A stretch of 56,794 nucleotides of DNA, from positions 1 to 56,794 of the IMG/VR virus record IMGVR_UViG_3300042862_000073; one strand, written 5' to 3'. Position numbers and translations under genes: made by a program. Of the stretch, positions 1 to 54,452 are shown one piece after another (position 1 is the first letter of the stretch; each line of letters begins with the position of its first letter). Below the pieces are notes generated by a model. That model saw only the letters and a list, made by a program, of their open reading frames with translations. It did no database searches and was not told where the DNA came from. The stretch is from a virus. Taxonomy: Duplodnaviria > Caudoviricetes.

Positions 1-141
1 GCAAAGCAAATGATGAAGGAGCAACACGAAGAAACTTGGTTTAGTAGTAGAGTAGAAGATATGGGTGATGAATTTAAGGTGGAGCAAAAGTCATTTGAGG
101 ACTACTATAACGAAACTTACGGAGGTCAAGATGAAAACTAA
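1..141 (+). CDS. Hypothetical phage protein, 5' truncated
   Basis: Frame 1 open from window edge: AKQMMKEQ...EDYYNETYGGQDEN*; overlaps next start. Confidence 0.6.
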   Translation, partial: AKQMMKEQHEETWFSSRVEDMGDEFKVEQKSFEDYYNETYGGQDEN

Positions 142-301
142 AACGGTAGAAAGGCTCCTCAAGGAAATAGAGAATAGGCCCTGGCATCTTAAACTAAGGG
201 ACTGGTGGAACATTAAACGATGGGTATGGACCTGTAGAACTAGATTCATTTGGGATCTGAGTTATGAACGTAATATCTTTAGAAAAAAGAACAATGGCTG
301 A
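131..301 (+). CDS. Hypothetical protein
   Basis: ATG at 131 (MKTKTVERL...) overlaps upstream stop; preferred to the ORF-track start at 65. Confidence 0.6.
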   Translation: MKTKTVERLLKEIENRPWHLKLRDWWNIKRWVWTCRTRFIWDLSYERNIFRKKNNG

Positions 302-491
302 TATAAGTAAGTGCATAGGGACAGATTGTCCCCACAAAGAAAAGTGCTACCGATTTACAGCACCGGCTAACGAGTACGCCCAAGCCTATTTTACGGAGCC
401 GCCAATCAAGGAGGACGGAACCTGCGATATGTTCTGGGGAAAGACACAGACAGACATCCTCTCCCAACTCAAGGAGATTGTCAAGGGATAG
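294..491 (+). CDS. Small Cys-rich phage protein
   Basis: MADISKCIGTDCPHKEKCYRF...C pattern; ATG 294 overlaps previous stop. Confidence 0.7.
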   Translation: MADISKCIGTDCPHKEKCYRFTAPANEYAQAYFTEPPIKEDGTCDMFWGKTQTDILSQLKEIVKG

Positions 492-1372
492 CGTGACAAA
501 TCCTCACGCCTTCAAAAATTGTCAAGATATCGTTTTACCTTTTGGATTTTTTTGTCCTGCAAGTCAATGACTTTTCGTGACAAATACATAGGTAAAAATG
601 TTACCACACTATAGTATGGTATAACAGTCATTAACCCCAATTTCACAGGCTAATGCATAGTATATCATACTTTAATGTGGTTTAGGTAAAATGGCAAACC
701 TCTCCCTTATAAGGAGCATAGCCGCCTAATTTTATCCCTCTAATGACATCTTATGAGTTAGATGCTATAAACCACACCTGTCCGATATAAGCGGACAACC
801 AACAAAAGACAGTGTTCTCATTTACTGGCAAATGTTTGATTGTGGAAAATAATCCCCAGAACAGGCGATATAGTGGAAAATAATCAATAAAGCATACACC
901 TTTATCAATCATAGTGGAAATATCAGTTTCAAACTGACAAGGGTGATATAAAACGCCATTACTAAAAAATCACAAGAGTATTGGCGAAATATAGAATGCC
1001 AAACTCCGTAACAAAAACACGCCAAACTCGGAAGTTCTCCGAATTACCTGCATGAATTTTTCCACAATCCCCATGCGCCATTGTCAAGTTTATTACGCAA
1101 AAAACTAGACACAAGCACCTAGGGACAACTCGTCCCCACAGCAACACACAAATCCCACCTACACCCGAAAACACCATTAGGTCGACTCCAACAGGATGGT
1201 AGATTATACCTTAACGCTGTACGAAAATTATACATTAAAGCAGTCGGCTACAAAACGTAACCAGCTGGTTAGTCCCACTACCCACCTGCATCAACCGGAA
1301 ACAGCCCTCCACCTTAGAGTGTTCCACAGGCGTTCCACAAGCTAACACATTGGCAGTCAGTTACATAGCTTT

Positions 1373-1388
1373 TGTTCCACGTGGAACA
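1373..1388. promoter_or_regulatory. parS: parS site (perfect palindrome)
   Basis: TGTTCCACGTGGAACA matches the conserved chromosomal parS consensus TGTTNCACGTGNAACA. Confidence 0.85.
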
Positions 1389-1405
1389 TAAGAGTACAGG
1401 TCATG

Positions 1406-1421
1406 CGTTTCACGTGAAACA
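1406..1421. promoter_or_regulatory. parS: parS site
   Basis: CGTTTCACGTGAAACA, one mismatch to TGTTTCACGTGAAACA. Confidence 0.8.
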
Positions 1422-1566
1422 TACATACATAAGCGTGGAACATCTGATTTAGGAAAGAGGCAGAACGTAGTGTAATGGGGGTCTATATACCATGTACAGC
1501 GCGGTGCTGTGTTCCGATGTCGTTTTTTGCGAAAGGGGTGCACCTACATTTGCAATGTGAATTTCG

Positions 1567-1582
1567 TGTTTCACGTGAAACA
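1567..1582. promoter_or_regulatory. parS: parS site (perfect consensus)
   Basis: TGTTTCACGTGAAACA. Confidence 0.9.
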
Positions 1583-1635
1583 AAGCAGCTTCTGTATTCC
1601 TTATTAATATACCAATACGAAATTCGTTGCTGCCC

Positions 1636-1658
1636 TTATTTAGAATGCGTCTAAATAA
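1636..1658. promoter_or_regulatory. Fur-box-like palindrome 1
   Basis: TTATTTAGA-ATGCG-TCTAAATAA, perfect 9-bp inverted repeat resembling the ATTTAGAAnnnnTCTAAAT Fur box as I recall it for Flavobacteriia. Confidence 0.6.
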
Positions 1659-1699
1659 CAAGAACACTAGGATATATAAAATATATTTCGTAATACAAA

Positions 1700-1715
1700 A
1701 TTTCCACGTGAAAAG
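1700..1715. promoter_or_regulatory. Degenerate parS site
   Basis: ATTTCCACGTGAAAAG; 12-bp core kept, outer bases diverged. Confidence 0.5.
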
Positions 1716-1730
1716 CAAATGTGAACCGCT

Positions 1731-1749
1731 ATTTAGAACGAGTATAAAT
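1731..1749. promoter_or_regulatory. Fur-box-like palindrome 2
   Basis: ATTTAGAACGAGTATAAAT. Confidence 0.5.
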
Positions 1750-1836
1750 TAGCAGCAAATTTGCATATCCCAATTTAATTCCGTATACGTGCGCGCGCGC
1801 CTGTTTCCTTATATGCAAAGAGAGAATAGGGTGCTT

Positions 1837-1855
1837 ATGTAGAATGCTTCTAAAT
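1837..1855. promoter_or_regulatory. Fur-box-like palindrome 3
   Basis: ATGTAGAATGCTTCTAAAT. Confidence 0.55.
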
Positions 1856-1863
1856 AACACATT

Positions 1864-1876
1864 TAACCTATTGATA
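1864..1876 (-). promoter_or_regulatory. IHF-like site
   Basis: Reverse complement TATCAATAGGTTA fits WATCAANNNNTTR. Confidence 0.4.
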
Positions 1877-1919
1877 TTCAGTTACTTAAATAAAAGATGC
1901 AAAAATAATTGCAAAAAAA

Positions 1920-1952
1920 TTTGCATTCACCTCTTCGAATGACGTATGTTTG
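1920..1952 (+). promoter_or_regulatory. Bacteroidota sigma70 promoter (early)
   Basis: TTTG (1920) - 21 bp - TATGTTTG (1945), the -33/-7 consensus, with A-tracts upstream. Confidence 0.75.
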
Positions 1953-2109
1953 CAGTGTCAATCAATTACAGCAACGGCAGTAAGAGTGACAGCGAAAAAA
2001 GTTCATTAAGAAAAAAGGGCATATCTCCTAATGGGATAACTACGCCCTGGTGGTGACCACACGTTAAACGGAGCTTAATGGGATAACTATGTACTAAATA
2101 TAAATAACT

Positions 2110-2313
2110 ATGGAAATTCAAGATTCGTCCTCGGTGTACTATTCTATGCCCGATGCAAGAAAACAGGTGTTCAAAGTAGGTCGTGTCACACGATGTGCTA
2201 AAAAGGTATGGGTGCAAGATAAACGCGACCAAGTGTTTAATGGGGTTTGCCGCATTATTCAACAGGGGGAACGTGCACAATTGCAGCGCGACACTAGACG
2301 GGCGAAGCGTTAG
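2110..2313 (+). CDS. Hypothetical early protein
   Basis: A-rich leader AAATAACTATG; first ORF after the promoter. Confidence 0.5.
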   Translation: MEIQDSSSVYYSMPDARKQVFKVGRVTRCAKKVWVQDKRDQVFNGVCRIIQQGERAQLQRDTRRAKR

Positions 2314-2332
2314 AATACGGAACGGCAACGGC

Positions 2333-2348
2333 TGTTCCACGTGAAACA
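2333..2348. promoter_or_regulatory. parS: parS site
   Basis: TGTTCCACGTGAAACA. Confidence 0.85.
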
Positions 2349-2401
2349 TTATTAGCATAGTGGTGACCACACTATAAACGGACAGACGGAAAGTACACAC
2401 A

Positions 2402-2417
2402 TGTTCCACGTGAAACA
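2402..2417. promoter_or_regulatory. parS: parS site
   Basis: TGTTCCACGTGAAACA. Confidence 0.85.
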
Positions 2418-2495
2418 TTGGTGCAAGGTACAACCTCGTGAAAGCCGAGGTCATGTAATATGCTACGCTCAAACCAATTAAATTTTACGTGCTTT

Positions 2496-2837
2496 ATGGA
2501 AAAGAATGTATCCTTTGTACTTACGCAAGAGAATGACTCTGCGTTTTATCTTCGTGGCGGCTTCGAATTTTCGGGGTCGGTAGAAGATGCATCTAGCGAA
2601 ATGACGTTTCGCGTTATCAAGTTTATGGAACGTGTCAAGAAGTTCCGTATGAAAACCAATTTCAAGTTCGGTAAAAAGTTCACCATCGATATGACTATTG
2701 ACGGGAAAACCTACCGAAGCACCGACCTGTACTTCGCCTTCGATGATTCGGGCAAGGATTGTAATGGGGCAATAACTCTCTCTATGAAACGCTCTACTAT
2801 CTTTATGGATTTAGTGCAAGAAATGATTGAGGCATAA
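2496..2837 (+). CDS. Hypothetical early protein
   Basis: Likely start MEKNVSF at 2496; followed by a terminator. Confidence 0.7.
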   Translation: MEKNVSFVLTQENDSAFYLRGGFEFSGSVEDASSEMTFRVIKFMERVKKFRMKTNFKFGKKFTIDMTIDGKTYRSTDLYFAFDDSGKDCNGAITLSMKRSTIFMDLVQEMIEA

Positions 2838-2861
2838 TTCGGCGGCTATTCAAATTTCAAT

Positions 2862-2882
2862 GGGGCTTCGTGCCCCTTTTTC
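2862..2882 (+). terminator. Rho-independent terminator
   Basis: GGGGC-TTCGT-GCCCC-TTTTTT. Confidence 0.75.
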
Positions 2883-2919
2883 TATTCAATCAAGTAAAAC
2901 CAATAAATAAATAAACAAC

Positions 2920-3123
2920 ATGGACAAGATCCTAAAACCCTTCATTGTGTTCATCACACATTGCGCTTTGTACAGTGCAACCTACATCACGGCATGTGCA
3001 CTCATTGCCCTAACATTCTGGACTAACTATGTTCAGATAGTACAGCACCCTGCGGCTATTGTCGCTATACTTATCACCGTGCTTTGTCACCTTACATTAA
3101 CCCTTTCAAATTCTAAACTATGA
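2920..3123 (+). CDS. Small membrane protein
   Basis: Two hydrophobic segments; AAACAACATG start context. Confidence 0.65.
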   Translation: MDKILKPFIVFITHCALYSATYITACALIALTFWTNYVQIVQHPAAIVAILITVLCHLTLTLSNSKL

Positions 3124-3284
3124 AAAGAAGTAATGCCCTAGTGCTGCTATACTTTGCAGCTATGTTATTGGCGGCTTCGATGGTGTCGTGTTCATCAAGT
3201 CAACACGGCTACGACTACAAGTCACATCAGAAGCGAAGCGGACACGGTCCAAGCAAGTGTTATGAAAAGCATAATAAATGGTAA
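3120..3284 (+). CDS. Small putative lipoprotein (54 aa, not in ORF track)
   Basis: MKRSNALVLLYFAAMLLAASMVSC signal with lipobox; ATGA overlap with previous gene. Confidence 0.65.
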   Translation: MKRSNALVLLYFAAMLLAASMVSCSSSQHGYDYKSHQKRSGHGPSKCYEKHNKW

Positions 3285-3302
3285 CCAATACAAATAAATA
3301 TC

Positions 3303-4532
3303 ATGTCAGAAAACAATTCAAACGTGCAGGTTGAAGATCTAGTAGACCTGTACAATGGCGAAGTAGCACTACGTAGCGAGTGCTTCATGTTTACAATCGG
3401 TCAATACGATGACCAATGGTATCACAAGGACGATGAGGGTGTCCTCACCATGACTTCGGGTGCTGTATGTCACACGGATGATGAAGATGATGTAAACCAC
3501 ACTACCTGCGGTGACTCCTTCCATAACGATGAGCAGGGCGACTGCGATATTGTATGGTGTGAGTATGACGACCTATACGCCTATGAAAATGACTGCGAGT
3601 ACGGTTATATCAATCGACGTACCGAAGGCTACTTCCTACGTGATGACAATGACTATGTAGAGTGTGACGGCACCTACTACCGTAACGATGATGTAGCTAA
3701 CTTCAACGACGTCTACTACTACGATTCAGTCAACGAGTACCGACACATTGACGATGCACCTGCTGATGATGATGACGAAGATGACGATACATATCTAGCG
3801 CAGTATCACAGCGGTGACCGAGCATGGCGTGTAGACAAGACTACTCCGTGGACAATGGGCTTCGAGGTCGAGAAGGAGGACAGGGATATACGTAATTCAT
3901 GCTTCCATGATGACCTACCTAACGATTGGACCAAAGAACGTGACGGCTCACTCTCAGATAGCTCTGGCTTTGAGCTTATCTCTCCTGTGTATAATCTCTT
4001 TGACAGGCTACACGAAGATGATATTGCGGCTTCGAGTTTGTTACGTAACCACATCAACGCCAAGCACAGCAAGTCATGCGGTGGTCACATTCATATCGGC
4101 AGTAAGTTGTATACAACCGAGCAATTGTTCCAGGGTATTAGCGGCTTCCTTCCTGTACTATACTCCCTGTATGAGAGTAGGGTTGATGTCACCTACTGCA
4201 AGGCTAAAAAGAAACACGAGTATCTCAACCGAGATAAGTACTCAGCCGTGTATGTGCGTGACACTACGGTAGAGTTTCGTATCTTCCCTGCGGTCAAGTC
4301 GGTAGACAATCTCAAATGGCGCATCGACCTGCTACGTATCATGGTACGCAACTTCGGTAAGTCAGAGCGTGACATACTGACTATGCTGTGTGACCGCAAA
4401 TCTATTCTTCATGAGCATCTGCTCAAGGTTATTGATGCAGACAAGATGCTGCAGAAGGTAGCCCTATTCGTCAAGTACTCGTCCATCTACAACGATACTA
4501 ACCTAGACGATCAATCAACTGATATTAACTAA
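3303..4532 (+). CDS. Putative amidoligase (COOH-NH2 ligase type 2) with acidic N-terminal extension
   Basis: GFEVEKE, ERDGSL, GFELISP, SCGGHIHIG and TVEFRIF motifs. Confidence 0.8.
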   Translation: MSENNSNVQVEDLVDLYNGEVALRSECFMFTIGQYDDQWYHKDDEGVLTMTSGAVCHTDDEDDVNHTTCGDSFHNDEQGDCDIVWCEYDDLYAYENDCEYGYINRRTEGYFLRDDNDYVECDGTYYRNDDVANFNDVYYYDSVNEYRHIDDAPADDDDEDDDTYLAQYHSGDRAWRVDKTTPWTMGFEVEKEDRDIRNSCFHDDLPNDWTKERDGSLSDSSGFELISPVYNLFDRLHEDDIAASSLLRNHINAKHSKSCGGHIHIGSKLYTTEQLFQGISGFLPVLYSLYESRVDVTYCKAKKKHEYLNRDKYSAVYVRDTTVEFRIFPAVKSVDNLKWRIDLLRIMVRNFGKSERDILTMLCDRKSILHEHLLKVIDADKMLQKVALFVKYSSIYNDTNLDDQSTDIN

Positions 4533-4546
4533 TAATTTACAAGACT

Positions 4547-5434
4547 ATGTGTATAGCAATCTTAAACCCTAATAACGTAACCCTTAAAAAGAAGGTCCTC
4601 AAGACCTGTTGGGAAAATAATACTGACGGAGCAGGTATGCTCTATCTAGCAGACGGCAAGTTAACTACTCATAAGGAGATGACTAACTTCGATTCATTCT
4701 ATGACCACTACTCTAATGTGCGTAAGCAATACAAGACTAGTCAAGTAGTCATACACTTTCGTATCTCTACTCATGGTAAGGTCAATCTAACTAACTGTCA
4801 CCCCTTTATTGTTAATGACAAGTGGGGATTTGTACATAATGGTATTATCTCGGCGGCTCCGAAGAACGAGGAATTTAGCGACACGTATATGTTCAACCGC
4901 GAGATACTACAAAAGCTACCTACCGACTGGATACATAACGATGCTATCTATGACCTCGTGCAGGAATATATCGGCAGCTCTAAGCTATTGTTCCTTAACA
5001 CCAACAACGAGGCATTCATTGTCAATGAGGATTGGGGTGTGTGGGACTTAGGCTGTTGGTTCAGTAACTCTACCTACAAGGCATCACGCTACTATGACTA
5101 CGGTGGTACTAAGGTCTACAAGGGTACGAGTGCGGCAGCGCCCACTATCACGCCTTCCCTCCCCACAGGCAAGTGGGATTCGTGGGACGATGATGATGTA
5201 GACACGTGGAACGATAGCTTCGACTACAAGTGGAACGCAACCACAGGAAAGTATGACCGTGTAACTGTAGAAAAGGAGGAGGAGTACACATCTAATCCGT
5301 GGGACACTAAAGACGAGCCTACCTACGATGACCGATGTGAGTCATGTATGGAAGATAAGGAATGCCGGTATGACTACGGCTACGATTGTAGTGTGTGCAA
5401 GGAGTGTGCAGATAGTATTCACCAACCATTCTAA
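4547..5434 (+). CDS. Class II (Ntn) glutamine amidotransferase
   Basis: N-terminal MC nucleophile, NxDGAG, HFRISTHG, NCHPF, HNG, SDT motifs; acidic tail ending in CxxC..CxxC. Confidence 0.88.
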   Translation: MCIAILNPNNVTLKKKVLKTCWENNTDGAGMLYLADGKLTTHKEMTNFDSFYDHYSNVRKQYKTSQVVIHFRISTHGKVNLTNCHPFIVNDKWGFVHNGIISAAPKNEEFSDTYMFNREILQKLPTDWIHNDAIYDLVQEYIGSSKLLFLNTNNEAFIVNEDWGVWDLGCWFSNSTYKASRYYDYGGTKVYKGTSAAAPTITPSLPTGKWDSWDDDDVDTWNDSFDYKWNATTGKYDRVTVEKEEEYTSNPWDTKDEPTYDDRCESCMEDKECRYDYGYDCSVCKECADSIHQPF

Positions 5435-5438
5435 TGAT

Positions 5439-5720
5439 ATGACACGATACGAATACTTTGAAAAGTGGATGACCACCGATGAGTGGCGTACATGGAAACA
5501 GTTATGTGTATCTAGATTTAGACAGATACACACCCTTAACACAAGGCAAGCCAGGGTGAAAAGACGCGAATATCTAATGCAGGAAGTAAACTTCCCGAAT
5601 GATGCAGCCGCAACAAATGATTTCGACACCATGACTAATATGTACATGCTATGGAGTAGTACACCTCAAGGTCATTCACATTGGAATCGATTAAACAGCA
5701 GAACAGGACCAATACGATGA
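5439..5720 (+). CDS. Hypothetical protein
   Basis: Start MTRYEY just after previous stop; WSSTPQGHSHW motif. Confidence 0.6.
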   Translation: MTRYEYFEKWMTTDEWRTWKQLCVSRFRQIHTLNTRQARVKRREYLMQEVNFPNDAAATNDFDTMTNMYMLWSSTPQGHSHWNRLNSRTGPIR

Positions 5721-6013
5721 AGATACAACAATTAGGTTTCAATCAAACCGTCCTTGCGACAACGTCGTGGGGTAAACAATTAGCCATTGAGCAGACATGT
5801 ATATGTGATATATACCTGCTCTCTGGCACTCCATTAAGTGGACATATGTATGTTGAGATGAACATACATAATGGTGAGGTTAAAGACATAGGGCTATACA
5901 CAAAAGATGGGACGCTGTTAGATTTTGACGGCGTTCCATTTTTGCCTCCTAGCCTAGTCGACCATCTAATTTACATAGGTATTAACTGCGATAAACTAAA
6001 ACAAACAACATGA
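5717..6013 (+). CDS. Hypothetical protein
   Basis: ATGA-coupled start MKIQQ. Confidence 0.6.
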   Translation: MKIQQLGFNQTVLATTSWGKQLAIEQTCICDIYLLSGTPLSGHMYVEMNIHNGEVKDIGLYTKDGTLLDFDGVPFLPPSLVDHLIYIGINCDKLKQTT

Positions 6014-6360
6014 GTACAGATAGATTTACTTTAGACATCGGAAGGATTGCTGAGAAGTTCGGCATGGACTATAAGGGAGAAGCCTACTTCCATGATGAAA
6101 ACTTTCTTAACAATCATAAACTTCCTTGCTATGTACCACTAAATACTGAAGATGTGTATGATATATACAGTCGAAATGATATAGATATGCAGGTTCGTGA
6201 GTGGTTAGATAGAGAGGATACAAAGGAGTATCTTTTAGAATCATATGACGGTGTTATGCCTGTAATTGACGAAGATTTTATTAGCAATTGGGTAGTGAAT
6301 GTATACCAGAATGTATCGTGGCAACACCCTTCAACGTATTTACAAGATCAACTAACATAA
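6010..6360 (+). CDS. Hypothetical acidic protein
   Basis: Coupled ORF with AAACAACATG start context. Confidence 0.7.
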   Translation: MSTDRFTLDIGRIAEKFGMDYKGEAYFHDENFLNNHKLPCYVPLNTEDVYDIYSRNDIDMQVREWLDREDTKEYLLESYDGVMPVIDEDFISNWVVNVYQNVSWQHPSTYLQDQLT

Positions 6361-6370
6361 AATAAACAAC

Positions 6371-6580
6371 ATGAAAGAACTTTTTGAAACAGACTACGTT
6401 ATTTATGACGAGGAATATGACCACGTTATTCAATTTTCAAATGGGGATATTGTACTATTTGGAACAAAGAACGAAGCTGAAGAAGATTCCCGTGGTATTG
6501 CATCGGGCAATCGAGTTGTAAGCTGCACTGACCTGCCTGACTATTGGAAGCAAATTATATTAACTCAAATAAATAAATAA
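6371..6580 (+). CDS. Hypothetical protein
   Basis: AAACAACATG start context, operon position. Confidence 0.65.
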   Translation: MKELFETDYVIYDEEYDHVIQFSNGDIVLFGTKNEAEEDSRGIASGNRVVSCTDLPDYWKQIILTQINK

Positions 6581-6590
6581 AACAAACAAC

Positions 6591-6830
6591 ATGAAAAAAG
6601 TATTAATGATTATGGCGCTAGCAATTGGATTGACTAGCTGCGAAAAGGAAACAAGTAAGCCGTGCAACTGCGGTACAATTACTAACGATGGTATCAATGG
6701 TAGCTGCTATTGGCTAGAGATTGAGAACGATTGCTCTGGCAATAAGAAAACATTCTGCTTCGATCAGAGTGTGTGGATGTCAGCCTATGTAGGCAGTAAC
6801 TTTTGTGTAACTAATCAAAACCAATGGTAA
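6591..6830 (+). CDS. Cys-rich putative lipoprotein
   Basis: MKK, hydrophobic stretch, LTSC lipobox, then CEKE; six further Cys. Confidence 0.75.
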   Translation: MKKVLMIMALAIGLTSCEKETSKPCNCGTITNDGINGSCYWLEIENDCSGNKKTFCFDQSVWMSAYVGSNFCVTNQNQW

Positions 6831-6831
6831 T

Positions 6832-7056
6832 ATGAGCAACATTCCATATCAAGAAGTTATCGAAGGCAATCTAAAAGCCGAGAAGGATACAGGAGATTTC
6901 GGTGGTCCAAATCAATGGCGCCTACACGTAAAAACTAATCAAGGTAGGTGGGAATCAGTACAATGGATGAATGTCCATAGTATTCAACGCTTCTTCAGCG
7001 CCAAGCTACCTGTGTATCAAGAAATAAGTTCAACCAAATACCAATTAGAAAGATGA
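6832..7056 (+). CDS. Hypothetical protein
   Basis: Tightly packed ORF. Confidence 0.6.
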   Translation: MSNIPYQEVIEGNLKAEKDTGDFGGPNQWRLHVKTNQGRWESVQWMNVHSIQRFFSAKLPVYQEISSTKYQLER

Positions 7057-7316
7057 GCAAACAAGAAGTAGAGGACCAAATCAGAAACTTCATCGAGTAC
7101 TACACCTCCAATGAGGAGGAGGGTATCAGAATGTTTAACACTCTTGATGACTACATGAACGAAGTGTATACCACATGGTATGAACTTAATGCAATCGTTA
7201 CCGGTGCAGAGCTTTCCGAATTGACACGAGCTGTAAATGCAGGAGAGTTCAACGGCCATAAGAGTATGGAGACTATATACAAGATAACTAACGGTATAAC
7301 AAAACAAATAAAGTAA
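7053..7316 (+). CDS. Hypothetical protein
   Basis: ATGA-coupled ORF. Confidence 0.65.
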   Translation: MSKQEVEDQIRNFIEYYTSNEEEGIRMFNTLDDYMNEVYTTWYELNAIVTGAELSELTRAVNAGEFNGHKSMETIYKITNGITKQIK

Positions 7317-7813
7317 TGGCTAATTGGTGCGGCAATAATGTTATATTCTCAGGAGAGAATGTAGACAAGGTGGATGAACTATTCACTAAGCTTATGAAAC
7401 AACAGGACATTGACAATCTTGGTATACGCCCCGATTGGGAGGCATGCAAGAAGAATGACGCCATGTATATGTTCTACATAGATAAACACGATTCAGGTTC
7501 CTATAGGTTTGAAACTAAGTGGGCTCCTGCTATCAATACTATCTTTCTTATAGGGCGGCGTTTCAAAGTTGCCTTCGAAATGGAATGGGATGAATGCGGC
7601 ATGGGACTATACGGCAAGATGATGTTCAACCCTGATATGCCTGATGTCGTAATGATGGCTGATGCTTCAGGTACTAACTTCCGATATGACGAAGAGAAGG
7701 ATAAATACATCTATAACGGTGAGGAGTATGAATCTAAGTATGACTTCCTGGACGGTGTCATTGACACCACTCCACTATCACCCATTAGTAAAGACCAAAT
7801 ACTAATAACATGA
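7316..7813 (+). CDS. DUF1281/YubB ferredoxin-like fold protein
   Basis: MANWCxN start, FETKWAP and ExGMGxxG motifs. Confidence 0.7.
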   Translation: MANWCGNNVIFSGENVDKVDELFTKLMKQQDIDNLGIRPDWEACKKNDAMYMFYIDKHDSGSYRFETKWAPAINTIFLIGRRFKVAFEMEWDECGMGLYGKMMFNPDMPDVVMMADASGTNFRYDEEKDKYIYNGEEYESKYDFLDGVIDTTPLSPISKDQILIT

Positions 7814-8004
7814 GAAGATTAATTGACATGCTAGCTGTGCTCGGTGCAATTTGCACACCGACAAGCATTATCCTGTGGATATTCGCCTATGACCTAGGCC
7901 TGCACAGGGAGTTATCAGTATACATACTGCTGATTTCTTTATCCTGCGGTGCAGTTGCAATCGTAACAAATACTATATACGATATTATTTATGGTGAAGA
8001 TTAA
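7810..8004 (+). CDS. Small two-TM membrane protein
   Basis: Two hydrophobic segments; coupled ORF. Confidence 0.6.
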   Translation: MRRLIDMLAVLGAICTPTSIILWIFAYDLGLHRELSVYILLISLSCGAVAIVTNTIYDIIYGED

Positions 8005-10702: not shown

Positions 10703-11515
10703 ATGAACAAAGCAGTAGAAATCAAAAAGTTCGAAAGCCAAGTAAAGGCCTACGAAGAAACCATCACCAAGCTAGTTGGTAACAAGTATGGTATCACAGC
10801 AGACGAGTTCGCTATGTCTGTTATGACAGCAGTAAAAAAGACACCTAAGCTACTTAATTGTGACCGAGGTTCTCTCTTTGCGGCTGTCCTTTTATCAGCG
10901 GAGCTAAAGCTTCCCTTCAACACACCATCAGGATTCTCCTACATCATTCCATACGGTAATGAGGCGCAGTTCCAGGTAGGTTACAAGGGGCTAGTAGAAA
11001 TTGCCTACCGTAACCCACGAGTTAAGTCGGTATATGCCGGTGTTGTATATCAAGATGAGGTTGCGGCAGGGCTATTCAGATACTCACGAGGTATGGATGT
11101 CATCCTCGAACACACACCGATTATGAACAGAACACCAGAGCAGGAACGTGAGAAGGAGGTGTACTGTACATACGGTATTGTTAAGCTTGAGGGTGCTGAC
11201 CCAATCATTGAGGTGCTTGACGCCAATCAACTTAATGCTATCAAGAAGATCAGCAAGGGTGCAGGTTCACAATCAAGTCCCTACAATAATGGTACAGACA
11301 TAGCCGATTGGATGTATAAGAAGGCGGCTATCAAACAATGCCTCAAGACAGTACCTAAGCAGGGTGTACCTGAGATAGCTATGGCTGTTGAGGTGGATGA
11401 CAAACTATCTTCAGGCAGTAGAGCAATCATCAACGAGGATGGCGGTGTAGAGATACAGGACGTGGACTTCGTTGAAAAGCATGAAGCTAAGGACGAAATC
11501 TTTAATGACCTATGA
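10703..11515 (+). CDS. recT: RecT-family single-strand annealing protein
   Basis: PKLLNCDRGSL, YIIPYGNEAQFQVGYKGLVEIAYR, MYKKAAIK..LKTVP motifs. Confidence 0.9.
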   Translation: MNKAVEIKKFESQVKAYEETITKLVGNKYGITADEFAMSVMTAVKKTPKLLNCDRGSLFAAVLLSAELKLPFNTPSGFSYIIPYGNEAQFQVGYKGLVEIAYRNPRVKSVYAGVVYQDEVAAGLFRYSRGMDVILEHTPIMNRTPEQEREKEVYCTYGIVKLEGADPIIEVLDANQLNAIKKISKGAGSQSSPYNNGTDIADWMYKKAAIKQCLKTVPKQGVPEIAMAVEVDDKLSSGSRAIINEDGGVEIQDVDFVEKHEAKDEIFNDL

Positions 11516-47130: not shown

Positions 47131-48522
47131 TTATGCGTACAATAGACCGCATTGCTCGATTTTGAACCAGTCGAAACCGAATTGAGTCAACATGTAAACA
47201 ACATAGTTGTCGTTTGGTCCAAGGCGACGTGGAGAAGCTGCTCCATCATCCCAAACCTTCATGAAGCGATCTTCACCGTCCATAGACTTGTATGTTAATT
47301 CAACACAGTTGCGCAATACACCTTGAGCATCAGCAGACTTCTCAGCAGGGATAAAGAATCCATAATCCTTGAACTTAGCAGATGCAGTAGCTCCGAACAT
47401 AACTGGGTCATAAGACAAGTCAAATGATTTCAAGTTTAAGTTCTTACCATTCAAAGTGATGGTGCTGAATGCGAATGTAGACATCATTGTTTCGAAGTCA
47501 GTGTTGTTACCAAAGATGGTCTTAGCACTTTCTTGACGAGTAGATGCGATGTTTACGTTGTTAGTATAAGCCAACAATTCTTGCTCAGCAACAACATAAA
47601 GATCTTTAGATAACAAACCGATAAGGTCAGTTCCAACCCAGTTAGCTTTTAAGCCATTAACCAAGTTATAGAAGTCATCAATCAAAGTTGCAGAAGTCCA
47701 AGCCTCTTGAACAGCGCGATCCTTGAAAGTTTCAACCATACCCTTAGTAGTAGAAGGTTGTCCAGGAGAAGTTGTAACATCACCGTAGATCATTGAACCA
47801 ACCAATCCCAAAAGGTGACGGTATTCGTGTTGAGCAAACAAATGCGTGTGGAATCCTTTCAAAGACTTACCATCATCCATCATTACAGGATAAAGTTTGT
47901 CAGTCAAAGCATCACCAGTGATTTTAGCAGTTGTCTTGTGACGTTGCAATTGGAAAGAGAATTTCTCCCAGTAGCTAGCCTTTGCTTCAGGTTGAGCAGT
48001 ATCTTCATCAAAAGAAGAAGAGTAGATAACTAAAGTTGGAGTAGTAGTTCCCCAGTTAGTTCCGTCTAAAGTAACAACAGTGTAGGTAAAGTTACCTGAA
48101 CCTGCATCAACTTTAGCAACAACACGTCCTTTTTGCTCGTTGTCAAGGTTGATAACCAAGTCACCGATTGCAGGATATGCATAGTACTGAGTAGAAGTAG
48201 AATCAATCTCTTGAGAAGCGTTGTATGTGAAAACTTCTGTTGGAGATCCACCTGCCCAAGCTGAAATGTTAACAGCAGCTAATTTACTGTGGTAACGATT
48301 TTCTTCGAAGTGGAAACCACCATTAGAGTTCGTGATAACACGCTTAGCTCCTTGAGCGATTAATAGATTTAAGATCTCCAAACCTTGACCACCGAAACGG
48401 CGATACAATTTAGTTGATACGTCTGGAGGAAGTGCGTCAATAGACGACAAAAGCGTATGCTGGCCGTAATTCGCGGCGCCCGTACCATACGAGTGATTTA
48501 CAATTGGGTTAGTTGTAGCCAT
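47131..48522 (-). CDS. Major capsid protein
   Basis: 463 aa after portal and scaffold; strongly biased codon usage; followed by hairpin. Confidence 0.8.
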   Translation of the reverse strand: MATTNPIVNHSYGTGAANYGQHTLLSSIDALPPDVSTKLYRRFGGQGLEILNLLIAQGAKRVITNSNGGFHFEENRYHSKLAAVNISAWAGGSPTEVFTYNASQEIDSTSTQYYAYPAIGDLVINLDNEQKGRVVAKVDAGSGNFTYTVVTLDGTNWGTTTPTLVIYSSSFDEDTAQPEAKASYWEKFSFQLQRHKTTAKITGDALTDKLYPVMMDDGKSLKGFHTHLFAQHEYRHLLGLVGSMIYGDVTTSPGQPSTTKGMVETFKDRAVQEAWTSATLIDDFYNLVNGLKANWVGTDLIGLLSKDLYVVAEQELLAYTNNVNIASTRQESAKTIFGNNTDFETMMSTFAFSTITLNGKNLNLKSFDLSYDPVMFGATASAKFKDYGFFIPAEKSADAQGVLRNCVELTYKSMDGEDRFMKVWDDGAASPRRLGPNDNYVVYMLTQFGFDWFKIEQCGLLYA

Positions 48523-48553
48523 TTTATTAAAATGTTTTTATTTGTTGTGTTTT

Positions 48554-49702
48554 TTAAAAGCCTAACGCTGCACGAGTTGCCGATAAGTGTGGACTTTCCT
48601 TAATATCTCCTGACGGAGCGTCTTTACGGTCTACTACTTTTCCACCATTGTGTACACTTCTGATGGTATCTTCCTTCAGTTTGCCAGCCGCAGACTTCAG
48701 TACTTCTTTCATAATTTGTTCTCTGTTTTCTAACCATACCCGGTTTTCGAGAACTTTCATAGCCGTTTGTACGCCTTGTTCATCTGGAGCCATTCCAGTC
48801 ATGTATTGTTTGATCTCAGGGATATAACGGTCTAGATCCTCTTTGCTTACCGCGAAGTCTATAGTTACATCTCCAATATCTTCTACATTAACTTTAATAG
48901 GAATAGATTTCATCTTCTCCGGTACTTTTGATAGAACAGTTTCCCATTGTTGACTTCTTTCATCCGTAGCCCTTTGGCTATCATTGCGTTGCGTTTGCAA
49001 ATATGTGAAATAATCTTGATTAGTATCGAACTCCTTTCGTTTGTTTTCAATACTTTTCAACGCCTTCTGCGCTTCAATGCGAAGCCCAATAGGCATTTCA
49101 TCAACTGAATCGAACGTAGAGTCCACATCCATGTTGTTTTTGTGAGCCACGTATTCCATTACGCGGTCCAAACCAAGACCTGCTAACTCCTTATCATTTA
49201 AGATTTCTAAAATAGCCAAAGCCTTTACAGGATTGGTTTTCAGAGAATCATCTGATGTGTTAAGGATTGTAGCTGCTAAATTCAAATCATCAATACCCGT
49301 TGAACGTACAAAGTTATTTAGACGGTGGATTGTATCATTTGCAAACGGATTTTTGATATCACGTGCAAATGGAACGATGTCCTCAACCTCTTTATACTTA
49401 GCAGCATCATCCTTATATCCTTTTGACGCATTAACATAGCTCTTCAACTCATCCATTGAATTAAAGCCTAGTTCCGTAAAATCAAATGAAGGATTTGCTG
49501 GCGGCTCCGAACTTGGTTCATCTGAAGAAACAGCAGCCAACTCCTCTTGAGTTATAACTGGCGTTTCAATAGCTGGTTCTTCCGGAGCTTCTGGCATTGT
49601 GTATTTTTGCATCTCCTGTTCGATGCGATCTTGTGACCATCCTTCGATAGCCGCATTTGCAGCAACCTCTGCTGGCAAATAGTTGTTTTCGTTACCTTCC
49701 AT
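48554..49702 (-). CDS. Putative scaffolding protein (crAss gene 77-like position)
   Basis: Acidic, helical; between portal and MCP. Confidence 0.65.
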   Translation of the reverse strand: MEGNENNYLPAEVAANAAIEGWSQDRIEQEMQKYTMPEAPEEPAIETPVITQEELAAVSSDEPSSEPPANPSFDFTELGFNSMDELKSYVNASKGYKDDAAKYKEVEDIVPFARDIKNPFANDTIHRLNNFVRSTGIDDLNLAATILNTSDDSLKTNPVKALAILEILNDKELAGLGLDRVMEYVAHKNNMDVDSTFDSVDEMPIGLRIEAQKALKSIENKRKEFDTNQDYFTYLQTQRNDSQRATDERSQQWETVLSKVPEKMKSIPIKVNVEDIGDVTIDFAVSKEDLDRYIPEIKQYMTGMAPDEQGVQTAMKVLENRVWLENREQIMKEVLKSAAGKLKEDTIRSVHNGGKVVDRKDAPSGDIKESPHLSATRAALGF

Positions 49703-49706
49703 GTTG

Positions 49707-52016
49707 TTATAGATTACCTGATATTTCTACTTCTTTTTGCTTCTCCAAAGTACCTTCTTGTGCAAGCTCAGCCATTCTATGGTTGTGTTTAACTTGTTCA
49801 AGTAGCGCCTTTTGCTGATACTCGGTAAGCATTTGATCTGTTTTTAATTGTTGAACAGCCATGTCAGCTTGTGCCTTAGCTTGCTGAGCCATCATAGCCG
49901 ACTGTTGTTGCGCCTGTGCATTCATCTGCATCATCTTCTCCTTTTGACCTTGAATCTCGCGCTTAGAACGCTCTTCTGACAAAGTCAAATACCATGAAGC
50001 AAACTCATCGTTCCCCTTCTCAAGTTCCTTCTCTATAAATAGATAGTCACCCATTGTAATTCCAGGCTGACCGCTTTTACCTACTTTCATAGATTCTAGG
50101 GCGGCTTGCATAATTATCTGTTTGCGTTGAGCTGAAGGAGTTGAAACTAATGTGATTCCAATTTGGTCAAGAGTCAAATCCTCAAATGAATTTAAGGCAT
50201 TCATCTTCTCTTTACCTAATAGATTAGAATAATACTTCTCTACCTCTTTATCAAACTTAATATTCGTTCTAGTCATAAGGATAGCCTTTCTAGCAGCCTT
50301 CTCCTTAAATCTCATCAATGCCTTTTTAAGAGGATACATCGCGTGGTTAGTTGAATCAACTTCCATTTGAGCTAATCCTAATCCCTGTTCGGAATTATTT
50401 GTAGGTTGAGCAGCCATAGCAGGAGTAATACCTGCAAGGTCCATAATACGATTCATGTCATCCTGCCAGCAGGTTAACCATTCTTGAAGCTGTGGTCCTA
50501 TTCCTCCAGGAAGTTCCTGAATAGAGCTAGCTCCACCACCCTTGTTTAATATGTCTGTCTTAGACTGAATGAATTGATTACCTGTTTGACGGCGGATACG
50601 AATAAGCTCCAATGGAGTCATCTTACCAAATCCCATATCCATATTAGACAATAATCCAATATCAATCATAAGACCTTTAGGTGCTGCACTCCATTTAGCG
50701 GCTTGCAACTTAATCCATGTCAACATTAATGAGTCAAGATGCGGCTTCCATCTTTCAACGATAGCCTTTCCTGGGACACGCTCAAAGAAATAGCTTAAAG
50801 CTACGTTTCCTTTAGAGTCACGCATCATATTCTTTTGCATACCGTAATCGTAAACGAATCTAGTACCCAAAATATAATTTCCTGTGTACAAGTTCTGCAC
50901 GCAGGTTACGTCTGTCTTTCTCTTACGTCCGTCAGCATATGGCTTTTTAATAACGCCATACTCTTCAGGAGCATATACATAAGTTCCGTCCTTCTTCTCA
51001 CGACCTGTAAAATAGTCGTAGTCATTAGACTTGTATTCAAAGTGAAGAACTTCAACAACGAAATCCTCCCAAATATAACGTCCTGTTACAGGGTCCTTGC
51101 GATTGAAGTTAAAATCCTTATCGCTATAACCTTGAGTTTCATAATATATTCTCGCAAGCTGCTCGAGGTCTTGTGGACTAGCACCCAAATTAAGTAGCTT
51201 ATGCTTAATATCCTTAATTTGAACCCTCTCAATATGGCCTGCAAATGCCGGTTCTGCTTCTTCACTTTCGTCAATATATGCTGTTACAAATGCTGCTGGA
51301 TTAATAAACTTCATCTTTGTTGATCCATCATCATCAGTATAGACACGCCCAACGCAAAAATTAGTTTCAATTAATTTCTCAATTGTTCTCAATCTAATCT
51401 TATCCCAATCACTAATTTGAAATACGTGCTCTGCGATATCAGCCATTGCCATTTCCAACGGCAACTTAAAGCCATGATATCTCTCGTACATATCTAATTC
51501 CGTTTCGTTAGCAGGAACCCAAGGATAATCCTTAGTAGGGATTCCAATCTGCTCGCGTAGTGGATTGATTAGCTTATCATCATAATACAATTTCCACTTC
51601 TCATAAGCCTTTTGATAGCTAGCCTCCTGATTCAAAGATTCAACATGAACTTTAAAATCACTTGCGCTAAGCATAGACTTAATTGTAGAAATGAATTTAG
51701 GAGCAGGACTCACAATCTCATAACTAACGTTGGTATATGCCTTACGAGAATATTCTGTGAAGTTTCTATCCGTACTATTCTTATCATTCTTAGTTCCTAG
51801 GAACCAGTCGCGATACGGCGCTGAAGATTGTCTTGACTCGGCGTAGTCGGTCATCATTTGAAACCATCCTGTAGCACTATGGCCAAACAGGGTTCTTCCA
51901 TTATACCATCTTGAATAGATAGCTTGACCCACCTGGCTAATAAAGCTAAGCGACTCTTTTTGCTCTCTAGGTACATTATCGGACGGAAAACCGATTATTT
52001 CGCTGAATTTCAACAT
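49707..52016 (-). CDS. Portal protein
   Basis: 769 aa after TerL; FP.D.V....K start, PKF motif, Q-rich C-terminal helical barrel. Confidence 0.85.
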   Translation of the reverse strand: MLKFSEIIGFPSDNVPREQKESLSFISQVGQAIYSRWYNGRTLFGHSATGWFQMMTDYAESRQSSAPYRDWFLGTKNDKNSTDRNFTEYSRKAYTNVSYEIVSPAPKFISTIKSMLSASDFKVHVESLNQEASYQKAYEKWKLYYDDKLINPLREQIGIPTKDYPWVPANETELDMYERYHGFKLPLEMAMADIAEHVFQISDWDKIRLRTIEKLIETNFCVGRVYTDDDGSTKMKFINPAAFVTAYIDESEEAEPAFAGHIERVQIKDIKHKLLNLGASPQDLEQLARIYYETQGYSDKDFNFNRKDPVTGRYIWEDFVVEVLHFEYKSNDYDYFTGREKKDGTYVYAPEEYGVIKKPYADGRKRKTDVTCVQNLYTGNYILGTRFVYDYGMQKNMMRDSKGNVALSYFFERVPGKAIVERWKPHLDSLMLTWIKLQAAKWSAAPKGLMIDIGLLSNMDMGFGKMTPLELIRIRRQTGNQFIQSKTDILNKGGGASSIQELPGGIGPQLQEWLTCWQDDMNRIMDLAGITPAMAAQPTNNSEQGLGLAQMEVDSTNHAMYPLKKALMRFKEKAARKAILMTRTNIKFDKEVEKYYSNLLGKEKMNALNSFEDLTLDQIGITLVSTPSAQRKQIIMQAALESMKVGKSGQPGITMGDYLFIEKELEKGNDEFASWYLTLSEERSKREIQGQKEKMMQMNAQAQQQSAMMAQQAKAQADMAVQQLKTDQMLTEYQQKALLEQVKHNHRMAELAQEGTLEKQKEVEISGNL

Positions 52017-52022
52017 TGGTTA

Positions 52023-52030
52023 CAAATATA
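52023..52030 (-). promoter_or_regulatory. Bacteroidota -7 element upstream of portal
   Basis: TATATTTG on - strand a few nt before the ATG. Confidence 0.5.
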
Positions 52031-52076
52031 GATATAACAGCACGCTAAAAAACATACTTTTTGATTTTTATTCAAC

Positions 52077-54452
52077 CTAATCAAAAAATTCTAGCAGGTT
52101 GTCCATAACTCTCGTTGAATTAGCCTCTTGCATATATTTAGGAAAGGCACTCTTAGCTCCAAGCAGAGCCATTCCTCCTGCGGCAAATAAGTCATAGTTA
52201 GTCATCTCGCTAGGGTCATTAATCTCAAGACACTCCTCTAAAAGTTCTATGTGGTTATCACCTTTCCCAAATAGGCGGATGTAATTCATGTACTCAGTAA
52301 AGATTTGTTCCTTGTCGGCTTCCGTTGTATATCGACCTGGAGCTTGGGCTAACTTCCCATTAGGATCTAAATCATTTAGTAGATATCCCTCATAACCCCA
52401 CTCACGGAACTTATCAATAACGATAGGCACGTTACGCTCAGGATAAACATGCGCTCCAAATAGAATAGCTAACTTCAACATATCCTCGCAATAGGTGTTA
52501 CCGTCATCAACACGAATGTTGTACGTTACAACAAATTTATTGCTTATCCATTGGTCAACCGGCTTATCCATACTATCAAATGCTGGATCGTGCTTATAAA
52601 ACATAGCACCACCACCATTAGACTTCCTACGGCCCTTCACGTCCCTGTTATTGAACTTAAATGGGTCACACCCTAATATGTATCTATTTACAACATCAGG
52701 TGAAGGATACCATGTGTTTGCCTCGCTATCGAAGTACTTCTTATTCCTCTGGTCCTCTGATGGTATATATGAAACAACATACTTTCCTTCCGGATCATCT
52801 GTAACTCTAACATTACTTCCAAATGCACCTACCCAATCTAATCTAACCGTTCTAGTTCTAAACAGTCGGTCAAACTTTAATTGGTTAATACGTGTTCTAA
52901 GAATAGAAAGGTCGAAGTTGTTATTCTTACTTGCTTTAGAGGCGGCTTCCTGAAGTGTCCAGGGGTTATCCCTAATCTCTCCATTTAATCGTAGGTCAAG
53001 TCCCTTCTCCTCTAAATCCTTTCTTGTATTCATTAAGATTGTTTTGGATCCTCTGGAAACCATGTTTCCCTCCAAATTTCTAATAGGCTCCATTGGATCT
53101 TCAATGATTGAGTTGCCGTACTCGTCCACACATTCGTCATAGCCGTCATATGCGGGGACGAAAAGGGTGTATAATCCGCTTGTTGTAAATCCGTTTTCGT
53201 TTCGCTCATCGTAATATGAAGATTTAATTAGATCAAAAAATTCTTTACCCCCACCTGCCTCGAACTCACCAAGTGTTGATGTGAACATGGCTAATCCGTT
53301 AATACGCAAACCTTGAGATAGACATTTACGAACAACGTCCTGCCATCTTCTTGGAATAGATACACCTGAGTCACCATGCTTACCACCCTCATCATCTAGA
53401 TAGGCGTGCAGCTTCTGTCCATCAAATGCCCTTTCACTAGATGCACGCGATTCAATCCAACCGTCATGGCTAGATATTCTATTTTGAGCTACCCCTTGTG
53501 TTCTTGCAGCAGGATATGTAAACGATAACTTTTCCTTTGGGAAGTCAGTTCCGTCATGAGCAGGTTTCAAAAAGAACGGTATCTTTCTCCAAGGTTTAAT
53601 TACCTTGTCTATATAAACGTCCTCCTTAGCCTGACGCTCTGTGATGGATTGTATTCCACCCTTCTGTTGTTTGCGTTCTGTTGTGATACAATACAATATA
53701 CAGGCGGCTTGCGAAGTTGCTCCAATACGGCGGCGTTTAGGAAAGATGTAACCATAGCAGGTTCTATATCCCATATCCACAACATATTTACCCTCATCAA
53801 CATAGGCTGCTGGATGCTTAGAAGCAAAATCTTCTGCATTCTTTACTCGTTGAAAGAACTTAGTTTTAATGTTACCCTCATTTCTGTAAGTAACCCTGTA
53901 TTTATAAACAGCCTCAGTTGTTGTATAGCAGTGCTTTGCAAAAATAAATATGCGGCGATCCAAATCTCGATACCACGGAAGTGAATCCTGTCGAGTTTCA
54001 TTTTGAATATCCCAGTAGTTAAGATAGATATAATGCCAACCATCTATGTATGTTGGCACTCCATTATTGAAGAACCAGTATCCCTGATAACGTCTTTTGA
54101 TTTGAACTTGAATCCACTCAATCTCATTTCTATACTCAAGTCGATTAGACTCCAACTCAGAATATATATCCTCCTGCGTAACAGCCTCCCTCTTCTTTAA
54201 CTTGTTCTTCTTCCGGATAATCTCTTGTATGCTCTTTAGCTTCTCAGGAACCTCCTGATGCTTAAACCTTTGATTTTTAGGATGCAGGCCATATCCATCA
54301 ATAAGTTGAATTGCCTCATCCCAATCTTTACCATAGAAGGATTCAACCGAAGGAAGCTTTATCTTAATCGTTTCAAGGATAGGGTCATGCTCGTGATACA
54401 CGGCATACTCTAGTTCCTGCTTATATTCGTTATGCCATTTACTAGTTGCCAA
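52077..54452 (-). CDS. terL: Terminase large subunit
   Basis: KRRRIGAT Walker A variant, YLDDEGGK Walker B, FTST coupling motif, ILGCDPF nuclease motif, late D..AAGGMAL. Confidence 0.92.
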   Translation of the reverse strand: MATSKWHNEYKQELEYAVYHEHDPILETIKIKLPSVESFYGKDWDEAIQLIDGYGLHPKNQRFKHQEVPEKLKSIQEIIRKKNKLKKREAVTQEDIYSELESNRLEYRNEIEWIQVQIKRRYQGYWFFNNGVPTYIDGWHYIYLNYWDIQNETRQDSLPWYRDLDRRIFIFAKHCYTTTEAVYKYRVTYRNEGNIKTKFFQRVKNAEDFASKHPAAYVDEGKYVVDMGYRTCYGYIFPKRRRIGATSQAACILYCITTERKQQKGGIQSITERQAKEDVYIDKVIKPWRKIPFFLKPAHDGTDFPKEKLSFTYPAARTQGVAQNRISSHDGWIESRASSERAFDGQKLHAYLDDEGGKHGDSGVSIPRRWQDVVRKCLSQGLRINGLAMFTSTLGEFEAGGGKEFFDLIKSSYYDERNENGFTTSGLYTLFVPAYDGYDECVDEYGNSIIEDPMEPIRNLEGNMVSRGSKTILMNTRKDLEEKGLDLRLNGEIRDNPWTLQEAASKASKNNNFDLSILRTRINQLKFDRLFRTRTVRLDWVGAFGSNVRVTDDPEGKYVVSYIPSEDQRNKKYFDSEANTWYPSPDVVNRYILGCDPFKFNNRDVKGRRKSNGGGAMFYKHDPAFDSMDKPVDQWISNKFVVTYNIRVDDGNTYCEDMLKLAILFGAHVYPERNVPIVIDKFREWGYEGYLLNDLDPNGKLAQAPGRYTTEADKEQIFTEYMNYIRLFGKGDNHIELLEECLEINDPSEMTNYDLFAAGGMALLGAKSAFPKYMQEANSTRVMDNLLEFFD

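Follow-up and report, generated by a model that had tools for sequence, protein, structure and literature searches.

The window analysed here is the whole of the IMG/VR phage record IMGVR_UViG_3300042862_000073 (Duplodnaviria; Caudoviricetes), a linear stretch of 56,794 bp with a CheckV completeness estimate of 86%, and it carries, within 1.1 kb and outside of any credible gene, a cluster of five 16-bp palindromes of the kind that serves bacterial chromosomes as the centromere site parS. At parS, ParB is loaded in the form of a CTP-dependent clamp that slides over kilobases of DNA, recruits SMC and is moved by ParA. Because the phage encodes no ParB or ParA of its own, the five palindromes are read here as loading sites for the ParB of the host, which their sequence makes moderately probable; that the purpose of such loading is the segregation of the phage genome is a more tentative suggestion, drawn by analogy.

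The parS cluster and its conservation

The sites lie in and just beyond a 1.6-kb non-coding interval (492-2109) between a small + strand gene that stops at 491 and the next credible gene, which starts at 2110. In order along the window, and without assignment to a strand, they are as follows.

1320..1338: two direct parS half-sites, TGTTCCAC (1320) and CGTTCCAC (1331), read from the sequence
1373..1388: parS 1, TGTTCCACGTGGAACA, a perfect palindrome, from the pattern scan
1406..1421: parS 2, CGTTTCACGTGAAACA, mismatched once (outer position 1), from the pattern scan
1434..1442: parS half-site CGTGGAACA, read from the sequence
1567..1582: parS 3, TGTTTCACGTGAAACA, a perfect palindrome, from the pattern scan
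1700..1715: degenerate parS-like copy ATTTCCACGTGAAAAG, its inner 12 bases TTCCACGTGAAA intact, with four outer mismatches
2333..2348: parS 4, TGTTCCACGTGAAACA, 20 nt past the stop of a 67-aa open reading frame (ORF), from the pattern scan
2402..2417: parS 5, TGTTCCACGTGAAACA, abutting a ribozyme and preceding an ATG at 2460, from the pattern scan

Scanning with TGTTNCACGTGNAACA gave no mismatches at 1373, 1567, 2333 and 2402 and a single one (a C at position 1) at 1406, and comparison with the chromosomal parS consensus TGTTNCACGTGAAACA likewise returned four sites that fit throughout and a fifth that differs at one base. An earlier note on this DNA had described five intact palindromes, a degenerate copy at 1700 and three half-sites (1320, 1331 and 1434), all intergenic and with none elsewhere in the window, and this description holds, with the qualification that the copy at 1406 departs from the pattern by one base. 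At up to two mismatches the window contains seven matches against a shuffle mean of 0.25, and none of 100 shuffles reached seven; the two matches that fall outside of the cluster (41386 and 43470) have two mismatches each, one of them inside the CACGTG core, and are at the level of chance. Shorter parts of the site are concentrated in the same place, with 6 of the window's 11 copies of CACGTG and 13 of its 28 copies of GTTNCAC falling within 1321-2416.

Relatives were collected through the terminase, which returned 23 IMG/VR loci at 83-97% amino-acid identity, and ten whole records were scanned at up to one mismatch. Intact parS sites occur in six of these, with four each in G003, G008 and G009, three in G011, and two each in G004 and G007 (in the latter at a contig end), and in all six the cluster sits at the place that matches its position in the window, the syntenic locus to which the earlier note had pointed. 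At the same threshold no site was found in G005, G006 or G010, the last of which ends before the parS region and is uninformative on sites, while G002, a complete record of 66,069 bp with terminal repeats, has no parS but just a CACTTG look-alike within a gene. The cluster is an accessory module in this phage group. No parS was found in the distant complete or circular phages Cellulophaga phi46:3, Flavobacterium elemoA and MW202828.

Where the cluster does occur, its sites have been kept in surroundings that have changed considerably, the non-coding region of the window aligning to its relatives in short islands only. In G007, identity is 97% for the terminase and about 68% for the corresponding region, yet its two sites match those of the window exactly in sequence, parS 1 among them. 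In a five-way alignment with a mean column identity of 57%, the CGTTTCACGTG.AAC of parS 2 is invariant in all five aligned relatives, and a half-site is aligned at the place matching 1320..1338 in G007, G003, G009 and G008, with its orientation reversed in the last three. In G003, a site immediately follows the stop of the homologue of the 67-aa ORF, much as parS 4 is placed in the window, and parS 5 together with about eight flanking bases is kept in G003, G008 and G009. Moreover, relatives in which the flanking 67-aa and 125-aa ORFs have been lost or replaced retain parS.

The manner in which the sites vary is also informative. Among 24 sites from seven family records (one of which, G011, largely repeats G009), only positions 1/16 and 5/12 are variable and all eight single mismatches are on the outermost base, although the sites were chosen at up to one mismatch and the invariance of their inner bases is thus partly by construction. 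In these 24 sites, variation is confined to positions that ParB tolerates, namely the outer base and 5/12. Natural chromosomal parS varies at the same positions, as seen in the consensus TGTTNCACGTGAAACA and in the Caulobacter form t/cGTTt/cCACGTGAAAca given in an excerpt of PMC7022226.

These results bear on the idea that the cluster is non-functional as parS and arose by chance, as a hairpin or terminator, as the neutral remnant of a captured origin or as a chimera of the assembly. A 16-bp palindrome can fold, one terminator-like match on the minus strand overlaps the 2402 site, and the module is absent from some relatives. Chance is opposed by the shuffles. A neutral remnant is opposed by sites that were kept while their flanks diverged beyond alignment. 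As for a hairpin, perfect palindromes make up only 6 of the 24 family sites, and the 5/12 asymmetry seen in 16 sites is without compensation in every case, which points to a protein site and not to a folded one.

The chimera was addressed through independent records and runs. Phage genes stand on both sides of the cluster in at least six independent IMG/VR records from different metagenomes. The stretch was also found in 24 lake-water or freshwater metagenome runs from 24 studies, five of which hold at least half of the sampled words, and two of these five may be its source. No RNA data set was among the sequencing runs listed for the stretch, an outcome that is neutral as to expression. In run X3, which belongs to another study, contigs cover 277-1573 and 1568-3714 of the window with 0 and 1 differences, respectively. 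Contigs from independent runs break at the parS repeats, and some of them continue into unlike sequence. Mis-assembled host oriC DNA, which the earlier note had named as a possible source of error, is ruled out by the flanking phage genes in relatives and by the independent assembly of X3. The non-functional reading is largely refuted in all of its forms, and we consider it highly improbable. The palindromes would instead be functional chromosomal-type parS sites, kept by selection in the phage lineage.

The search for a partner protein

Six-frame searches with ParB_N (PF02195) gave no match in any of the 11 family records (the window and G002-G011), and those with TIGR00180, AAA_31 and Phage_integrase gave none in five records each; the tool's control genomes scored in every six-frame run, and among them Bacteroides thetaiotaomicron scored for both ParB_N and TIGR00180. 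Pfam scans of 43 window ORFs showed no partition, repressor or integrase domain, and those of 10 ORFs of G003 and 7 of G010 no partition or repressor domain. The structural ORFs at 19405-47061 were covered by six-frame family searches only, and those at 47131-54452 by scans other than that of PHROGs. The absence of a parB gene from the window, which the earlier note had reported, is thus confirmed by ParB_N and TIGR00180, and its description of the phage as free of an integrase stands as well. A self-contained cassette of the P1/N15 type, with its own parA and parB, was not found.

The part of the genome that the window lacks can be supplied from two relatives. G010, about 90% identical to the window in DNA over the shared structural region, continues past the window's end, and G003 spans the junction that the window is missing. 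Together they show that the missing 4-5 kb contain, besides the remainder of a metallophosphoesterase gene and a gene for a DUF3127 protein, two unknown ORFs and the genes for a Toprim/DnaB primase-helicase and for a protein of 177 aa that has the helix-turn-helix (HTH) of DnaA domain IV (DnaA_C). The earlier note had proposed that parA or parB might be sought in the rest of the genome, and neither is present in the missing part as covered by G010 and G003.

Sites of this type without a ParB gene are by no means peculiar to the window. Scanning IMG/VR for two parS within 31 nt gave at least 110 stretches, and the 79 records behind 80 of these loci were examined (L052-L131, G012-G090). ParB_N was absent from 77 of the 79 and matched in two, in one of them above the cut-off; among the 41 examined records that are at least 90% complete, one has a match. 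A subset of 20 records contained 2-7 sites each, and a reversed control pattern occurred in none of them. About 20 DNA-distinct groups, which have no phage gene in common, make up the 80 loci; the window joins none of these groups, and proteins of its family have no matches in the examined loci. Elements of 11-14 kb that end in inverted terminal repeats and carry their parS within them form the largest groups, and a protein-primed polymerase (PolB) was present in 10 of 25 records tested. Several complete phages of about 42 kb carry three parS each. The occurrence of ParB-less sites in unrelated viral groups points to a shared host factor, and it suggests that parS without ParB is a common, largely unstudied phage trait.

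Conceivably, the palindromes could be operators of an unrecognised dimeric DNA-binding protein encoded by the phage, with their likeness to parS being convergent or captured. Most of the small early ORFs have no family, the phage group encodes the DnaA-domain-IV HTH protein, and the half-site TGTTCCAC resembles the DnaA box, TTATCCACA. The DnaA_C gene directly follows the primase-helicase gene (3671-4204 in G010 L178; 11095-11628 in G003 L045) and is present in all eight family records searched, four with parS, three without it (G002, G005 and G006) and G010, and in 0 of 20 unrelated parS-bearing viral records. As a parS binder, this protein therefore fails the test of co-occurrence. Neither the weak HTH ORFs nor the two ORFs that adjoin the sites fare better as candidates, the former because they do not track parS and the latter because the 67-aa and 125-aa ORFs are missing from parS-bearing relatives. 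Finally, the same 16-mer recurs in the roughly 20 DNA-distinct viral groups without a shared phage gene. A phage-encoded binder is, on this evidence, improbable.

The only window genes that do track parS among relatives are an amidoligase and an amidotransferase, neither of which resembles a DNA binder. The pair is found in all four parS-bearing relatives with coverage (G003, G004, G008 and G009) and in none of the three without parS. Since the pair adjoins the cluster, simple linkage is the likeliest reason, and a functional tie to parS may also exist. A search with the amidoligase found one distant fragment, which was without parS.

Elements around the sites

Several further features surround the cluster, some of which touch upon its possible function.

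839..903, + strand: iteron-like repeats GTGGAAAATAATC, two exact (842 and 873) and a weaker third, from a repeat scan
841-849 (- strand) and 1058-1066 (+ strand): DnaA-box-like TTTTCCACA
1635..1859, no strand assigned: three 26-nt palindromic operator-like repeats TTATTTAGA-N5-TCTAAATAA (1635, 1728 and 1834), in DNA of 33-37% GC
1920..1952, + strand: promoter motif TTTG-N21-TATGTTTG, between the two parS groups, from a motif scan
2110..2313, + strand: 67-aa basic ORF between the two site groups, with no family found
2416..2481, + strand: twister-sister self-cleaving ribozyme (RF02681), 38.4 bits, above the Rfam gathering score of 34
3303..5434, + strand: gene pair for Amidoligase_2 and a class-II glutamine amidotransferase

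The iteron-like and DnaA-box-like repeats lie 300-500 bp upstream of the parS sites, and in relatives the primase-helicase and DnaA_C genes are located just upstream. The iteron-like stretch at 839-903 is 85% conserved in G003, G009 and G011 while its surroundings do not align. By its sequence, 839-903 together with the DnaA-box-like repeats is a possible replication origin. The iterons, the TTTTCCACA boxes and the DnaA domain-IV protein of about 177 aa taken together resemble a phage origin with its own DnaA-like initiator.

Farther along, TTTG-N21-TATGTTTG is a motif of the Bacteroidota promoter type. It is not enriched across the window (five found versus 2.3 expected), and a σ70 promoter scan of the window was at background. 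The copy at 1920-1952 is likely to be the early promoter. The parS sites flank it at distances of 340-580 bp upstream and 380-480 bp downstream. The 26-nt palindromic repeats, upstream of the motif, look like operators for a dimeric regulator; similar repeats are present in G003, and the set is separate from parS. Within the AT-rich DNA of the promoter region, an alternating CG run, CGTGCGCGCGCGCC, is conserved between the window (1788-1801) and G003 (L045 13815-13826).

Other conserved segments are found between and beyond the sites. A block, CAGAAC.TAGTGT..GGGGGTC.TATATAC ... TTTTTTGCGAAAGGGGTG, occupies 1466-1545 in the interval from parS 2 to parS 3 and is conserved in all five aligned relatives; as an RNA it was set aside, having no convincing consensus fold (-4.5 kcal/mol). 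The 5′ leader at 2029-2089 contains two exact TAATGGGATAACTA repeats, and an element of the form GTGGTGACCACAC..TAAACGGA occurs twice (2050-2072 and 2360-2382), the first copy preceding the ATG at 2110 by 38 nt and the second that at 2460 by 78 nt. Variants of this element in G003 keep the GTGG...CCAC arms.

After parS 4 and parS 5, the + strand continues with the ribozyme, the 125-aa ORF and a terminator. The ribozyme begins within the final two bases of parS 5 and extends across the start codon of the 125-aa ORF (ATG at 2460), from which a cut of the early transcript between two small genes is predicted. No Rfam match at E<=1 was found in the loci of G003, G004, G008 and G009, and the stem ends ATTGGTGCA ... 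AAACCAAT are kept in G003. The 67-aa ORF has a 66% identical counterpart in G003 and none in G008, G009 or G004, all three of which still have parS.

Genes located further downstream encode Amidoligase_2, the class-II glutamine amidotransferase, a RecE-like PD-(D/E)XK nuclease, RecT, a RusA-like protein and MazG, and those for lysis, the tail, the portal and the large terminase are on the minus strand. ARAGORN found no tRNA in the window. The phage is probably podovirus-like with a genome of about 60-66 kb. A RecT cluster 99% identical to that of the window (10703-11515) is recorded on contigs of up to 63,960 bp, and a fuller copy of the phage is therefore probably present in public assemblies.

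Host, precedents and possible uses

The terminase and portal each matched 87 phage records, of which one is uncultured and 86 are cultured phages of Flavobacterium, Cellulophaga, Tenacibaculum and Maribacter (Flavobacteriaceae), at 23-26% identity. For the primase-helicase, the best cultured match is a Riemerella phage (40%), followed by Flavobacterium phages (34%). Based on these matches and on the promoter motif, a Flavobacteriales-like member of the Bacteroidota is the probable host. The host phylum named in the earlier note is thus made probable by cultured relatives, and it falls short of proof since these relatives are distant. Other searches added little in this respect: genome-contig searches with the terminase and with a 36-sequence RecT alignment found no relative, protein-cluster searches with the lysin-like and DUF3127 proteins found viral clusters only, and RecT matches in cultured phages are spread across many hosts and are uninformative. 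A blastn search of window 1-8000 against cultured phages gave zero matches, and a tail-fibre tblastn for relatives was uninformative. Neither the Flavobacteriales nor the Flavobacteriaceae are known to form spores. ParABS homologues and clusters of consensus parS have been described by Hi-C in 12 gut bacteria that include Bacteroides caecimuris, according to the accessible portion of PMC10197239.

The nearest precedent is phi29, a virulent phage with five host-type parS and no ParB that exploits host Spo0J for entrapment in the spore (PMC2731898, in the part available); PMC9437464 also describes this use in the part available, and both papers cite Meijer et al. 2005. The pattern used here finds four perfect sites in phi29 (NC_011048.1; 10445, 15903, 17243 and 18760), mostly within genes. 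Like phi29, the phage of the window has no integrase, parA or parB, has several parS of the host consensus in a genome without parB, and presumably relies on a host protein as the binder. There are also clear differences. Phi29 has a protein-primed genome of 19 kb and a spore-forming host, whereas the present phage is podovirus-like with a genome of about 60-66 kb. The parS of phi29 are spread across the right half of its genome and are mostly intragenic; here all of the sites are intergenic and lie within 1.1 kb, around an early promoter and a putative origin. Furthermore, the phi29 sites act with Spo0A boxes that suspend the lytic cycle, for which no counterpart was identified here, although the operator-like look of the 26-nt repeats means that they could play such a role.

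Other partition systems resemble the cluster in part. With chromosomal ParABS it shares the 16-bp sequence, the variable positions, the clustering of sites and the adjoining DnaA-box-like repeats, the difference being that this replicon is a virus without parA or parB. As in the partition cassettes of P1, P7 and N15, a phage genome contains centromere sites for active partition. P1, P7 and N15 supply ParA/ParB (or SopA/SopB) themselves, for sites whose sequences are particular to them, whereas the phage of the window has no such genes and its sites are of the host type. In the genomic island SGI1, which hijacks the parABS of IncC plasmids, a mobile element likewise carries a cis-acting parS only and obtains ParB from another replicon (PMC10954446, as far as its accessible text goes); unlike the present case, the donor there is a helper plasmid and not a chromosome, and the element is an integrative island and not a virus.

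In the literature searched, most of it outside of subscription journals, the phi29 family was the sole phage precedent found for host-type parS without ParB, and nothing was found on Flavobacterium or Bacteroidota phages with such sites. The earlier note's interpretation is partly supported. Its central inference, that host-type parS in a phage without ParB would load the ParB of the host, survived all of the tests that were run, while its novelty was overstated, given that it compared only P1 and N15 and missed phi29. The novelty lies in a probable Flavobacteriales podophage, in likely hosts that are non-sporulating and in the clustering of the sites at the early control region.

If the sites are what they appear to be, host ParB would load at five of them within 1.1 kb, and the loaded ParB would slide over the early promoter and the putative origin. 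A partition complex would then form and couple the phage genome to the ParABS/SMC segregation machinery of the host. The likeliest use, in analogy with phi29, whose genome reaches the spore via host Spo0J, would be the keeping, positioning and inheritance of the phage genome in cells with delayed lytic growth, in a carrier state that needs no integrase.

Several observations weigh against this account. G002, G005 and G006 cover the interval from the primase-helicase to RecE and have neither parS nor the amidoligase/amidotransferase pair; the absence of parS from three covering relatives implies that the basic lytic cycle can do without the cluster, which may be a swappable module. Neither Pfam scans of the window ORFs nor the integrase search recognised any genes for lysogeny or a carrier state. 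The phage has been seen in metagenome runs only and never in the run of an isolate, with no sign of persistence in cells. Also, many small ORFs without a family could encode a binder.

Some of the same points would suit a second account, in which host ParB is recruited for other ends, such as its titration, the timing or silencing of a promoter, the loading of SMC or the coating of DNA. In the titration version, hundreds of replicated parS copies would deprive the host origin of ParB and thereby of the loading of SMC and the control of ParA. The flanking of the promoter motif at 1920-1952 on both sides would be apt for promoter control, and KorB, a clamp of the ParB family, reportedly silences genes over long distances (PMC11790492); the lack of lysogeny or carrier-state genes in the window scans and the accessory nature of a cluster that is absent in G002, G005 and G006 fit as well. 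Nothing in the sequence separates these uses from segregation. However, the promoter already has three palindromic operators that are distinct from parS, and phi29, the sole studied case, uses its sites for segregation, as far as the available parts of the sources go. Recruitment for such other uses is, on balance, rather unlikely.

Returning to the reading in which host ParB loads on the phage DNA for its inheritance, it is conceivable that borrowing of this kind is a general strategy of phages that lack an integrase, with the present phage existing as a "centromere-only" episome in a heritable carrier state. Host ParABS/SMC would then segregate the phage through cell divisions, the trick would have arisen in about 20 DNA-distinct groups, and the 11-14-kb protein-primed elements with parS inside their terminal inverted repeats would be included. 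This broader proposal is possible but doubtful.

Should host ParB indeed load at these sites, parS would provide a simple mark, readable from sequence, by which to recognise phages able to persist in dividing cells without integration. It would bear on the old puzzle of carrier states and pseudolysogeny, of which reports from aquatic and gut Bacteroidota are frequent while the mechanism is obscure, and it would extend a mechanism from a single family of Bacillus phages to another phylum, another phage type and non-sporulating hosts. The tally of 77 out of 79 records suggests that the mark is common, and the sites would lend themselves to the imaging of such phages by means of ParB fusions.

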